Virus record (IMG/VR): IMGVR_UViG_3300027987_000266
Length of the DNA: 64,000 bases
Direction: 5' to 3' (one strand)
Source: a virus
Part shown: positions 844 through 57,590 of the stretch, piece after piece
How positions within the stretch are numbered: the stretch's first letter is position 1
How the letters are laid out: every line of letters starts with the position of its first letter
Position numbers and translations under genes: made by a program
The notes under the pieces: model-generated
What the model was told of the DNA's origin: nothing
Database searches by the model: none
The model's input: only the letters and a program-made list of their open reading frames with translations

Positions 844-870
844 GTTGCAGAGCCAGTGGCCGAGATAAAA
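844..870 (-). promoter_or_regulatory. promoter-like motif variant (minus sense TTTTATC-N-TGCAACAC)
   Basis: Intergenic, upstream of 435..818. Confidence 0.3.
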
Positions 871-877
871 GGGAGAA

Positions 878-1222
878 CTAGAACTCGTCCACCTTCTCCA
901 TGCCGATCTTGAGCAATTCCGGTTCAGCTTCCTCACGTAGCCATTGCTCGTAGTCGATTCCTTGGAGTTTGGCGGCAAGGCGAGCCGGATCGTAGCCCTT
1001 TAAGAATTCGCGTGCTTTCTCAGCCGTGTCGTACTCCATAGCGAATTCCAGCGTTTCATGGAGACAGACGCTTAGAGACACGTGATCAACAGCTGCACGG
1101 ATGTCCGCCAGAGTTATGTCAGCTTGCTTGACGTTGCCGGGCAGATACTCGTACGGCAACTGCACGATGGTCAGCTGCTCGACTTGCCGCTTGTCTCCGT
1201 CGATAATGACGATTTGGGCCAT
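878..1222 (-). CDS. hypothetical protein
   Basis: 114-aa ORF with ATG at 1222. Confidence 0.5.
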   Translation of the reverse strand: MAQIVIIDGDKRQVEQLTIVQLPYEYLPGNVKQADITLADIRAAVDHVSLSVCLHETLEFAMEYDTAEKAREFLKGYDPARLAAKLQGIDYEQWLREEAEPELLKIGMEKVDEF

Positions 1223-1539
1223 TGGAGTTTCTCGTCGATTTCGTTGATGGGGATGTGTCGACCTCTAATTGTCCAAACACGTCCGTGGCAATTGAAGACT
1301 GGCACTCTGGGGGAGTTCGGCCTCTCAACAACGTAGACGAAAACCTCCAGACTGTCTCGCTGTGCACGAAGCACCGCCTGCTGCGTGTCCTGGGCTGTGT
1401 AGTGCGTCTCTTCCTCGACACGACACCCACCAATGCGACCGCTTCTGAATTGTTTCTCAATGGCCGTGCGGCGGTACTGTAGAGGGCACTGGATACGACC
1501 GACTCGACGCTGTACGACAAAGTACGGGTAACGGTTCAT
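1171..1539 (-). CDS. hypothetical protein
   Basis: 122-aa ORF. Overlaps the downstream gene by 52 nt in another frame. Confidence 0.4.
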   Translation of the reverse strand: MNRYPYFVVQRRVGRIQCPLQYRRTAIEKQFRSGRIGGCRVEEETHYTAQDTQQAVLRAQRDSLEVFVYVVERPNSPRVPVFNCHGRVWTIRGRHIPINEIDEKLQWPKSSLSTETSGKSSS

Positions 1540-1853
1540 TTCGCTGCCTTTCTCGTTAAGGCTCGCCCAAAAGTTGGAGAGAGTCCATCCATGCAGGTGA
1601 ACTTGTGAGTGATCCGGTCATTGACAGGCCACGTTCCAAGGATTCCGATGTGCCGCTCGCCGTCGTCGAGTTCGATGGTGGTGATGCTCTTGTCTTGGTA
1701 GACGAGGGCGAGTCTGGCATCGGGGTTGTCCATCCCGCGATCCGACAAATAGAAAGTGTGATTCACGCCGTTGTTGCCAAGTATCTCGACGAGGACAAAC
1801 GCTTCCGGCTTGTCTTTATCGACGAAGATGTGGTTATGGCTCTTCGGTCTCAT
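1536..1853 (-). CDS. hypothetical protein
   Basis: 105-aa ORF. 4-nt ATGA-type overlap with its neighbour. Confidence 0.5.
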   Translation of the reverse strand: MRPKSHNHIFVDKDKPEAFVLVEILGNNGVNHTFYLSDRGMDNPDARLALVYQDKSITTIELDDGERHIGILGTWPVNDRITHKFTCMDGLSPTFGRALTRKAAK

Positions 1854-55570: not shown

Positions 55571-56709
55571 AGCCAGTCGTCTTCCTCTTCCGTCGCGGCT
55601 ACCGCGTCTTCGTCTTCGACGTCGTCATCGACTTCCGCCGAATCGACGGGCCAGATGTTCTTGTCTTCCCAGACATCCGGCTTTCCGGCGAAGCGGTCAC
55701 CCTTGACGGGGCACTTCTCGTAGTTCGGCAACTGCGATTGTGCACCGATCGGAATGTTGGCCACCGATTCACAGACACGGTCGATGTCCCTCTGGTTCAT
55801 ATTGAACTCTTTGAGGAAGTCCGCGATATCCGTAAGAGTCAGTGTCCCCTCGGTGAGGCCGATGATCGCACCTTGGACGTGCGGCAGAAACTTGGTATCG
55901 GGGAGGACCACCAAGCGATCCTTGCCAACGATATCCAGCCAGAAACTTTTGGTGGAACCCGGCGATGGCACTTGCAGGACGAAAGCGTGGGCCTGATCGA
56001 GCAGGTCGCTCCAGACATCACCGAGTTCGAGCGAGCCTCGGACGTTCATCTGGTGACCGTTCTCGGACACTTTCTCGAACACCTTCTCGCCGAAGACGCG
56101 AATCAGCTGGTCTTCCGCAATCCGGCCGCGACCGGGTGCGTCCGTCACGGTGAAGTCAAACCGTTTCAGGCCGATTCGGTTGATGTAGGCCCGAACGAGG
56201 TAGGCACCACCGAAGATACCGAGATCGGGATCTTCCGGAGTGTCGCCGCCGTCTTTCTCGGGGACCATGAGCGTCAACTGATCGACGATCTTTTGTGTCT
56301 CCATTTCGAACTGTGGGCGGCACAGCGGAAAGTTGTCGCTGACGTCGCCAAAGATGCCGGTGGCGACCTGGAGGTCGTAACCATCCAGAACGGATTTCCA
56401 GCATTCGAAAGCGTCGGGCAGCACTTTCATGGCCACGTCAACATTGTGGCCCATGCTGCCGGTCGTGTCAACACGAGTTTCGATTGGAATCGGCACGCCG
56501 ACCGACAATTCCCACTGATCGTTGTCGAGCTTCTCGACGCGGGGAAGTGAAAGTCGGATGACGCCGAATCCCGATGGGTCAACGAGTGGCTCGAGCTTGC
56601 CGATTTTCTTCGCCTGCTGTTCGGCCTTGGCGGTCACGGCTCTGTCGCCAATTCCTTTCTCAGCCTTATAGCTGGCGTACATGCTCCGCGAAAATGTGTT
56701 CTTACCCAT
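55567..56709 (-). CDS. VWA-domain protein
   Basis: MIDAS-like VDTTGSM plus a downstream acidic tail. Confidence 0.6.
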   Translation of the reverse strand: MGKNTFSRSMYASYKAEKGIGDRAVTAKAEQQAKKIGKLEPLVDPSGFGVIRLSLPRVEKLDNDQWELSVGVPIPIETRVDTTGSMGHNVDVAMKVLPDAFECWKSVLDGYDLQVATGIFGDVSDNFPLCRPQFEMETQKIVDQLTLMVPEKDGGDTPEDPDLGIFGGAYLVRAYINRIGLKRFDFTVTDAPGRGRIAEDQLIRVFGEKVFEKVSENGHQMNVRGSLELGDVWSDLLDQAHAFVLQVPSPGSTKSFWLDIVGKDRLVVLPDTKFLPHVQGAIIGLTEGTLTLTDIADFLKEFNMNQRDIDRVCESVANIPIGAQSQLPNYEKCPVKGDRFAGKPDVWEDKNIWPVDSAEVDDDVEDEDAVAATEEEDDWL

Positions 56710-57550
56710 GAGCCGCAGTCCTTCCTAGTGGTTGCGTTCTGAACTTGTAAAATCCAGGCTCCCACACAGAGTCTGGAGCTGCACACAACTCGTCGACGAT
56801 GCCATAGAACTTGCTATGTGCTTTCGTGGCATCCGACTCACCATCGATCGCCAATGACCGGAGGTAGTTTGTGTATGGAATGTCGGCGTCGTTTTCACGA
56901 GCCGCAGCGAGATCGCCGCCAAGCACCGCAATCACGCTTTTGGCGGCAAGTTTGACTTCATTTCTGCGAACAGACCCAGGCACACCCTTCTCGTGGATGA
57001 CAGCCTTGGACCAATCGAACAGGATGGAGAAATGCTGATCTGGTTCGATCAGCACATTGTTCCCTGAGATCTTGCCCACTTCGATTCGATTGTCGTGGGC
57101 GAAGGCGATGATTTTGAGAATCTTCCCGAGAATCCACGCACTGGTGCGGAGATCGACGCGAAGCCCGACTTTGGTGATCTTCACCAGCGGGATTATCGCT
57201 TCGACTTTCTCCACGCCTCTGAATCCAAGGACGTTGACTTGTCTTCCGCCTTGGTGCCGTAGGACGAAGCTGTCGCAGACCTCTGGGAATCCAAGGCCAA
57301 AATTGAGAACGCCTTCGTTGCCTGCTTCGGCATATTCGCGTTCGATGGCGTCGGCCGCCTCAGCAAGACGCGTCAGAGCGAGAGCGTTGACAGCTAGCTC
57401 ACTGTTCTTTGTTGCGTCAATGGCGATTTGGATGAGAAGTTCGCGTCCACCGCTGGACACGCCACGACGAATCCGGTAGATCGGATTCTCGGCGACGACG
57501 TCACGAACGTCGTATTGGTCGTTTTTGCCTTCGATCATTCTGGCCTCCAC
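56702..57550 (-). CDS. hypothetical protein, first gene of a coupled operon
   Basis: 282-aa ORF. Alternative start MIEGKN at 57538 with GGAGG ribosome-binding site. Confidence 0.5.
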   Translation of the reverse strand: MEARMIEGKNDQYDVRDVVAENPIYRIRRGVSSGGRELLIQIAIDATKNSELAVNALALTRLAEAADAIEREYAEAGNEGVLNFGLGFPEVCDSFVLRHQGGRQVNVLGFRGVEKVEAIIPLVKITKVGLRVDLRTSAWILGKILKIIAFAHDNRIEVGKISGNNVLIEPDQHFSILFDWSKAVIHEKGVPGSVRRNEVKLAAKSVIAVLGGDLAAARENDADIPYTNYLRSLAIDGESDATKAHSKFYGIVDELCAAPDSVWEPGFYKFRTQPLGRTAAHG

Positions 57551-57557
57551 TTTCGAC

Positions 57558-57590
57558 CATGTTGCCGACAGTGACAGGTCGTTAAATCAC
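57558..57590 (-). promoter_or_regulatory. promoter-like bipartite motif, minus sense TTTAAC-N16-GCAACAT
   Basis: Sits between terminator 57631-57666 and the operon start. Same motif family as 13 other sites. Confidence 0.5.

Follow-up and report, generated by a model that had tools for sequence, protein, structure and literature searches.

What does a two-box motif that recurs in front of phage genes signify, and which protein reads it? The question is raised by a stretch of viral DNA of 64,000 nucleotides (nt), IMG/VR virus record IMGVR_UViG_3300027987_000266, which as a whole is designated the window in the following. Its genes mostly read in the sense of the minus strand (107 of the 117 genes in a map derived from codon usage), and upstream of them recurs a motif whose full consensus in gene sense is (a)TT(A/T)AC-N15/16-G(C/T)AACA. 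An earlier note on this DNA had proposed that the motif is a promoter; strand, position, start signature, terminator context and conservation all support this proposal, and on these grounds the motif very probably represents a promoter of some kind. The more specific interpretation, which we favour with modest confidence, is a core promoter with the geometry of the sigma70 family that would be read by a phage-encoded factor of the sigma type. Almost everything known of huge phages comes from metagenomes, and maps of their transcription programmes are lacking; the motif supplies a testable promoter consensus for one clade and delimits, without culture, about 20 transcription units in the window and more in its relatives.

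Occurrence and conservation of the motif

All motif counts refer to the whole window unless stated otherwise. The core pattern of the earlier note, GTTGC-N14-18-GTTAA on plus-strand letters, has 12 matches, all of them on the plus-strand letters, compared with 0.29 expected. A refined pattern, TGTTRC-N15/16-GTWAA on plus-strand letters (in gene sense TT[AT]AC-N15/16-G[CT]AACA), yields 20 matches in the gene (minus) sense and none on the other strand, at an expectation of about 0.06, which confirms a bipartite motif upstream of minus-strand genes; no shuffled sequence contained more than one match, and separate dinucleotide shuffles agree. With one mismatch allowed, there are 28 matches in gene sense and 1 in plus sense (1.5 expected), and this lone plus-sense copy (41347-41372) directly precedes one of the few plus-strand genes. 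The pentamer TTAAC alone is already biased by strand: 25 copies are in gene sense and 9 in antisense, and in 12 of the former GCAACA follows at a distance of 15-16 nt. Among the 20 sites of the window, the first box is TTAAC in 14 and TTTAC in 6 cases.

The sites are concentrated between genes: intergenic DNA makes up 10% of the window but carries 13 of the 20 sites (binomial p ~4e-9), and 15 of the 20 lie 15-120 nt 5' of a called start codon. The earlier note had set its promoter apart from a motif equally frequent in coding sequence on both strands; found were no plus-sense copies and a motif density in intergenic DNA about 17-fold that in coding DNA. The other words over-represented in intergenic DNA are just those resembling ribosome-binding sites (RBS) and GTATTTG(A), and none of them is bipartite. 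The individual copies and the hairpins next to two of them are listed below in gene sense, with lengths in base pairs (bp) or amino acids (aa) and SD denoting a Shine-Dalgarno sequence.

60163-60189, minus strand: exact site, TTAAC-N16-GCAACA; predicted start at about 60155; 42 nt 5' of the gene for a 485-aa protein (58663-60120)
57628-57664, minus strand: hairpin resembling an intrinsic terminator, 15-bp stem followed by UUUU; -28.1 kcal/mol, z -4.7; about 35 nt 5' of site 57560
57560-57585, minus strand: exact site, N15; 21 nt 5' of ATG 57538
49558-49583, minus strand: variant TTAAC-N15-GTAACA; intergenic, 82 nt 5' of gene 48846-49475
44872-44898, minus strand: exact site, N16; SD and ATG 44823 downstream, with an in-frame TGA (44799-44797) in that frame
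41347-41372, plus strand: the only plus-sense copy, TTATC-N15-GCAACA (one mismatch); predicted start base is the A of ATG 41380
32001-32027, minus strand: exact site, N16; 47 nt 5' of a DksA/TraR-like zinc-finger gene (31732-31953)
28396-28422, minus strand: exact site, N16; just 18 nt to ATG 28377, SD inside the gap
24863-24889, minus strand: TTTAC variant, deep intragenic; no start codon nearby
26145-26170 and 54454-54480: matches of the same deep-intragenic kind
20204-20230, minus strand: TTTAC variant at a gene junction; predicted start base on the A of the in-frame ATG 20196; uncertain leaderless candidate
17607-17632, minus strand: exact site, N15; 38 nt 5' of gene 17152-17568
16622-16647, minus strand: exact site, N15; 45 nt 5' of a MoxR-type ATPase gene (15221-16576)
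14270-14295, minus strand: exact site, N15; 56 nt 5' of a DUF2201/VWA gene (12822-14213)
about 12762-12799: 14-bp hairpin upstream of site 12703
12703-12728, minus strand: exact site, N15; 21 nt 5' of ATG 12681
11929-11954, minus strand: exact site, N15; 24 nt 5' of the in-frame ATG 11904, which has an SD
9951-9977, minus strand: TTTAC variant, N16; 33 nt 5' of gene 9252-9917
8369-8395, minus strand: exact site, N16; 22 nt 5' of ATG 8346, AGGAGG between
5990-6015, minus strand: TTTAC variant, N15; within the 3' end of the upstream gene, 36 nt 5' of ATG 5953
4751-4776, minus strand: exact site, N15; 99-nt leader, then ATG 4651
3489-3515, minus strand: TTTAC variant, N16; 45 nt 5' of gene 2859-3443
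843-868, minus strand: weak copy TTATC-N15-GCAACA; 24 nt 5' of gene 435-818; pyrimidine-purine step present

Ten of the twelve sites that had been regarded as well formed are exact (4751, 8369, 11929, 12703, 14270, 16622, 17607, 28396, 32001 and 57560); for one of them the coordinate given earlier, 12695, points to an adjacent duplicated TGTTGC, and the correctly spaced copy is 12703-12728. Sites 3489 and 9950 are present, but with TTTAC as first box, and the latter lies at 9951. As to the weaker variants, that at 844 (843-868, TTATC) is plausible, and that at 26509 is doubtful, as it reads GAAAC and has no pyrimidine-purine step after the second box. The GTTGCAAC assigned to a plus-strand gene start at 41365 is present, but is the second box of the plus-sense copy 41347-41372 just before the start of gene 41380-42207, which ATG 41380 opens. 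Copies missed earlier are 44872 and 60163 (exact), 5990 (TTTAC) and 49558 (GTAACA).

Site 57560 heads a block composed of 56702-57538, 55567-56709, a PurA-like gene and then 52957-54192 onward. The earlier statement that it lies right after an intrinsic terminator holds, and hairpin and site together form a predicted terminator-promoter cassette. The frame behind site 44872 (44467-44823, minus strand) has an SD, ATG 44823 and 8 codons, followed by the in-frame TGA; past it come about 109 more sense codons (VYVITRRDLSPAQQAVQ...) with no canonical start before GTG 44727. The frame has no Pfam match, and it could represent read-through, a non-canonical start or a decaying gene. In the 99-nt leader behind site 4751 (4652-4750, minus strand), a 14-bp GC-rich hairpin is followed by GGGUUUCUUUUC (4705-4674), and the leader folds at -53 kcal/mol (z -4.5); it has no Rfam family match and may be an attenuator or a small-RNA end.

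Relatives were compared by means of an alignment of ATPase orthologs, which comprises six huge-phage relatives, among them a 408 kb contig (IMGVR_UViG_3300000976_000008; locus L003, with L033 as a second 22 kb view of it), a 122 kb contig (L004) and a 354 kb relative (IMGVR_UViG_3300013121_000020). Upstream of the ATPase orthologs, the window, the 408 kb contig (ATPase identity 81%, GC content 44%) and the 122 kb contig (ATPase identity 75%, GC content 42%) all retain both boxes, and the spacer and flanks have diverged. The site of the DUF2201 gene is also kept in the 408 kb contig (L003, 11826). Locus L003 contains 2 and L004 contains 3 copies, compared with 0.05 expected in each, and L033 adds six further exact copies, five of them on the gene strand. 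The opposite-strand copy in L033 lies 31 nt 5' of an opposite-strand gene block, and the one in L004 immediately 5' of an SD and ATG of the same strand. In the 354 kb relative (70% ATPase identity), TT[AT]AC-N15/16-GCCACA occurs 4 times, always on the gene strand and with copies in front of the ATPase and ligase genes, so that the second box drifts among sister lineages (GCAACA, GTAACA, GCCACA). Relatives whose ATPase identity is 51-58% proved to be without the motif, and among the 32 loci compared, 22 have no match at all. Conservation and the absence in distant relatives therefore indicate a functional, conserved and lineage-restricted element.

Flanking DNA was covered for about 16 kb to the left and about 10 kb to the right of the window (L005 1-11000). 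On the left the motif persists for at least 16 kb, with 5 more gene-strand copies, one of them 41 nt before a ligase gene, and the right flank, a region of tRNA and sugar genes, is nearly without it; therefore at least one other promoter class must exist. This right flank carries a tmRNA gene (tag AKHSFAMAA), 12 tRNA genes and genes for ribosome recycling factor, a cold-shock protein and dTDP-sugar synthesis (Rml).

Two further observations concern the motif's surroundings and its clade. The word GTATTTG(A) is enriched 5-6-fold in intergenic DNA and occurs in the window at about 57590-57600 and in gaps such as 37729-37797 and 18632-18681, as well as in loci L031 (about 9925) and L004 (about 14190). 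At several sites it directly abuts the first, -35-type box, and it may serve as an upstream element of the promoter or as a signal of its own. The GC content is 55% in the window and 37-46% in relatives (L003, L004, L021-L024) that share 51-81% ATPase identity and gene order, an unusually wide spread within one phage clade.

Predicted promoter anatomy

Information is restricted to the two boxes, and spacer and flanks hold about 0-1 bit per position; the earlier description of conserved boxes around a variable spacer is borne out, the spacer containing about 0 information. The second box lies 18-99 nt from the ATG, in keeping with the 20-100 nt upstream of RBS and ATG stated before. At sites 28396, 57560, 12703 and 8369, only 18-22 nt are left, and these are mostly occupied by a good SD; therefore the second box is neither an upstream activator site nor a -35 element, and lies within about 10 nt of the mRNA 5' end or inside the mRNA.

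Downstream of the second box, a G-pyrimidine-purine step is present, in which the sixth base is G at 15 of 25 sites, the seventh a pyrimidine at 20 of 25 and the eighth a purine at all 25. These 25 include 13 sites that were not used for defining the motif, all of them with the purine, and the count is 32 of 33 when later-found sites are added. Where a pyrimidine-purine step follows a -10-type box at constant spacing, it usually marks the start of transcription. We infer that transcription would begin at the purine 8 nt 3' of the second box, which places G(C/T)AACA as a -10-type box at about -13 to -8, with its A at -11, and TT(A/T)AC as a -35-type box at about -34 to -29. The predicted placement matches the geometry of sigma70-family holoenzymes. 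At three positions, 41380 (plus strand), 20196 and 18074 in L031, the predicted +1 purine coincides with the A of an ATG that opens an open reading frame (ORF), where about 0.5 such coincidences are expected by chance; the start at L031 18074 was called independently. These are candidates for leaderless mRNAs, a possibility for which the coincidence is suggestive only, and the consensus predicts start sites with such mRNAs included.

Two explanations other than a core promoter bear directly on this anatomy. Both TTAAC and GCAAC contain AAC, repeated at a period of 20-21 bp, and the window encodes small proteins resembling helix-turn-helix or winged-helix proteins (36760-37728, weak matches), as would befit an operator in which a phage DNA-binding regulator occupies two direct AAC half-sites about 21 bp apart over weak promoters. 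We regard an operator as very unlikely, since these upstream regions contain no further conserved element, the asymmetric site always points in the direction of the genes, and both the fixed pyrimidine-purine step 8 nt downstream and the 18-22 nt limit to the ATG are predicted by a core promoter. In the window, L004 and L033 alike, the orientation of the copies tracks gene direction.

The strand specificity, the position 5' of the RBS and a faint similarity of the first box to the tail of boxA might also point to a signal in the 5' leader of the RNA, such as a processing site, a translational operator or an antitermination element. An RNA-level signal is extremely unlikely. A conserved fold or excess stability is missing: the 15- or 16-nt spacer is no more stably folded than its shuffled versions (mean z -0.28), its mean minimum free energy is -3.27 compared with -3.52 kcal/mol for random 26-mers, and a strong hairpin is present at 1 of 16 sites; a reading of the spacer as hairpin or RNA structure was therefore rejected. 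There is no Rfam match at any site, the remaining boxA sequence is missing from the upstream flanks, and distances of 18-99 nt to the RBS do not fit a translational operator. Some copies follow terminators, where a new transcript must begin, strong hairpins closing the preceding genes before sites 57560 and 12703.

Candidates for the reader of the motif

The clade carries homologs of T4 gp13 and gp15 (354 kb relative) and a Gp23-like fragment (window), and is classed among T4-like jumbo phages because the 354 kb relative has the gp13 and gp15 homologs. Given boxes unlike any cellular housekeeping consensus, and a second box that varies between sister lineages, the most likely reader would be the host core RNA polymerase (RNAP), steered by a lineage-specific phage-encoded sigma-family factor whose gene would lie outside the window. 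Jumbo phages with a gp23-type capsid are reported to contain no RNAPs and, without exception, to encode sigma factors (PMC7824862), and this, together with the drift of the boxes, likewise points to a phage-encoded sigma-family factor elsewhere in the genome.

The whole proteome of the window (concatenated proteins) was searched with Pfam and PHROGs, using permissive thresholds for ten candidate regulators. In the window, the flanks and the relatives' loci, no gene was found for a sigma factor, anti-sigma factor, MotA/AsiA-type protein or RNAP, and neither Sigma70_r2 nor r4 had a match there. Sigma-factor query sequences gave a best E value of 0.08 when run with local phmmer against the 1,660 ORFs of all loci, and second views of two relatives, obtained via ligase homologs, contained no sigma or RNAP gene. 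The single candidate for a protein conserved only in motif-bearing relatives, 17152-17568, was rejected as not DNA-binding-like. Nothing relevant to these boxes, or to a promoter consensus of Planctomycetes, was found in the literature, and the sample accessions are mentioned in no paper. The earlier suggestion of a phage sigma factor or RNAP, or of one temporal class, is consistent with the evidence, but the reader gene was not found in the sequences covered.

This negative result is one of several points that weigh against a core promoter served by a phage-encoded sigma-type factor. The start site is predicted from a sequence proxy only. Seven of the 20 matches are intragenic, 3-4 of them without a start codon nearby, and for match 24863-24889 it is uncertain whether it is an internal promoter or chance-like. 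The motif heads about 20 transcription units of small genes of early or middle type, most of them ORFans, including the MoxR ATPase/VWA pair, the DksA-like protein, the NAD-dependent DNA ligase and the PurA-like block; these genes look early, and early genes normally need the host holoenzyme or a virion-delivered factor. Finally, the drift of the second box could reflect different hosts instead of different phage factors.

Several of these points lead to a serious rival, to which we nevertheless give a clearly lower probability, namely that the promoter is read by an alternative sigma factor of the host, of the extracytoplasmic function (ECF) type or another of group 3/4, so that the phage borrows the code of that regulon. 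The early-looking genes favour a factor that is already in the cell, and no phage sigma gene was found in the sequences examined. One hint to the host exists, a 2.5 kb contig fragment of a relative that was binned in a Planctomycetota metagenome-assembled genome, and Planctomycetota are rich in ECF sigma factors. In addition, the -35 box contains AAC as in ECF promoters (PMC8103513). However, the CGT of ECF promoters is missing from the -10 box, sister phage lineages have different second boxes, more distant relatives are without the motif, and the host assignment comes from that one binned contig. Dependence of some 20 or more promoters on a stress sigma factor would also be unusual for a lytic phage.

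A promoter of a sigma-independent phage RNAP, either single-subunit or a multisubunit enzyme of the phiKZ/AR9 type and possibly delivered by the virion, is quite unlikely. About 90 kb of this phage show no sigma70-like promoters above the level of shuffled sequence, no sigma gene was found and the motif stands before early-type genes, all of which would suit such an enzyme. An arrangement of two short boxes, spaced by about two helical turns with 15/16 nt of free sequence between them, is, by contrast, typical of recognition by sigma domains 2 and 4. T7-like promoters are contiguous 20-bp blocks, N4 promoters are hairpins and phiKZ/AR9 promoters are single AT-rich boxes, and the motif, with no hairpin and about 0 information in its spacer, is unlike all of them. 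The sequences examined contain no RNAP gene, and the absence of RNAPs has been reported for jumbo phages with a gp23 capsid (PMC7824862).

The preferred reading, a phage-encoded sigma-type factor at a core promoter, can be extended to a bolder one that we consider unlikely in its entirety: the clade would use a promoter code of its own for early and middle transcription, independent of host sigma factors from the outset, with a reader that is either too divergent for Pfam and PHROGs or virion-delivered, with some leaderless transcripts, and with boxes and factor co-evolving (GCAACA, GTAACA, GCCACA). For the missing specificity factor, the motif serves as a search image, as the DNA-binding residues of a candidate sigma factor should track the box variants, and should a compact phage sigma factor prove to be the reader, it would form with its promoter a candidate orthogonal expression part.

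Genomic setting and known promoter classes

The genes of the window are identical on contigs of JGI 3300027985 (32 kb and 111 kb, the latter Ga0259481_10000192) and in Logan assemblies of SRR7216773, and the joined contigs point to a genome size of about 180 kb or more. The proteins of the window are mainly ORFans. Recognisable ones are the MoxR-type ATPase with its DUF2201/VWA partner, GroES, the DksA/TraR zinc-finger protein, a divergent enzyme of the PurA family, an ARPP-1 protein, several HNH endonucleases and the Gp23-like fragment; just beyond the window lie genes for NAD-dependent DNA ligase, Rml sugar proteins, CSD and RRF, as well as tmRNA and many tRNAs. The phage is uncultivated and comes from metagenomic sequence, and no cultured phage with annotation is close to it: among cultured annotated relatives, two large genes have no DNA or protein match, and the ATPase matches with at most 27% identity. 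A paper on the 'moraphage' lineage was ruled out as a description of this phage, since it concerns a different lineage.

Several genes merit mention in their own right. A 955-aa protein (38305-41172) has a major-vault-protein shoulder domain (E 1e-21) and a vault repeat but no PHROG match, and is unusual for a phage. The divergent adenylosuccinate-synthetase-family gene 54185-55570 (Pfam E 3e-36; in the PDB only cellular PurA, E 1e-14) may be PurA-like or PurZ-like, and sits in a conserved block (51374-60120) with four unknown proteins and the ARPP-1 protein. In the 173-aa protein of 50849-51370, just about 48 residues match the T4 Gp23 major capsid family (Pfam 5e-11, PHROG 1e-11), and it is probably a capsid-protein fragment or a derived domain in a block of non-structural genes. 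Genes 23079-23906, 30079-30960 and 30953-31723 form a paralogous group that also includes one gene of the 408 kb relative, which indicates a lineage-specific expansion. Free-standing HNH endonuclease genes number three (23893-24387, 46817-47281 and 60210-60764). The 186-nt gap 29381-29566, in which no gene was called, translates in a coding-like manner (EIGITLDEESIKDAMALW...) and may contain an overlapping gene or a frameshift. Two tRNA genes with anticodon UCA (46766-46840 and 48666-48739) are UGA-suppressor-like and, with 74-75 nt, too short for a true tRNA-Sec. They prompted a check for TGA recoding, which was rejected: there is no systematic read-through, with coding-like flanks on both sides at 0 of 177 in-frame TGA codons. 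TGA is the commonest stop codon (67 of the 117 genes).

When the motif is compared with known promoters, the earlier statement that it is unlike those of sigma70 and sigma54 stands. Matches to the sigma70 consensus number 3, 11 and 4 in the window (positions 1-60000), compared with 6.2, 11.2 and 8.4 in shuffled sequence, and 0 compared with 6.5 in the right flank (L005); these low numbers may reflect avoidance of host-type promoters. Promoters of housekeeping sigma70/sigmaA resemble the motif in the A at -11, in a similar position relative to the predicted start and in that TTAACn is 1-2 positions off TTGACA. Over TTAACn and TTTACn, 4-5 of the 6 positions of that -35 hexamer agree, but its G is never present. 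Housekeeping promoters differ in that a T at -12 is found only in the GTAACA variant and that the hexamers are 17 and not 15-16 nt apart. The -10 consensus TATAAT (T-12, A-11, T-7; spacer 17 +/- 1) was rejected as a match, since the box is G(C/T)AACA and T-7 is not conserved. A GC-prefixed -10 is known from Caulobacter sigma73 (TTGACGS-N10-14-GCTANAWC).

Other types were rejected as well. The letters of the boxes and the 15-16 nt spacing are incompatible with sigma54 (GG-N10-GC, -24/-12). Promoters of T7-like single-subunit RNAPs are contiguous over about 20 bp spanning the start, as opposed to a spacer of about 0 bits and a length of 15 or 16, and for the hairpin promoter of the N4 virion RNAP, the spacer folds at the level of shuffled sequence. 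The T4 late promoter (gp55) has TATAAATA at -10 and no -35 element, whereas the motif has a -35 box; a single TATAAATA is present in the window, on the non-gene strand, and there is no enrichment. No Rfam family matches at any site, only tRNAs reaching the gathering threshold.

ECF promoters, whose hallmarks are AAC in the -35 and CGT in the -10 element (PMC8103513), are like the motif in its AAC at the 3' end of the -35 box, in the short boxes about 16 nt apart and in overall geometry. They are unlike it in the second box, which is GCAACA, GTAACA or GCCACA and never CGT, and in the -35 box, where TAC replaces AAC in 6 of the 20 window copies. ECF sigma factors consist of domains sigma2 and sigma4 only, share a transcript with their anti-sigma factor and activate their own expression; no such sigma/anti-sigma gene pair was found beside any copy.

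The closest parallels come from phages. T4 early promoters are strong sigma70-consensus promoters. Cassettes of T4-type early promoters and stem-loops (PeSLs) are reportedly described by Arbiol et al. 2010 for hyperplastic regions of T4-like genomes. The window differs in its -10 box G(C/T)AACA and in sigma70-type matches that are not enriched, but resembles them as DNA of a T4-like phage with many small ORFans on one strand, some bracketed by a terminator hairpin and a repeated promoter. The SPO1 gp28 middle and phiEco32 gp36 promoters are phage-specific, sigma-dependent classes that use the host core RNAP together with a phage sigma factor. Their consensus differs, and no cognate sigma factor was found here; like the motif, they have a non-housekeeping box consensus that is repeated before many phage transcription units of one class. 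The consensus of the motif matches none of the tested types and is lineage-specific; phage-specific bipartite promoter classes are already known, and the principle of phage transcription is left unchanged by it.

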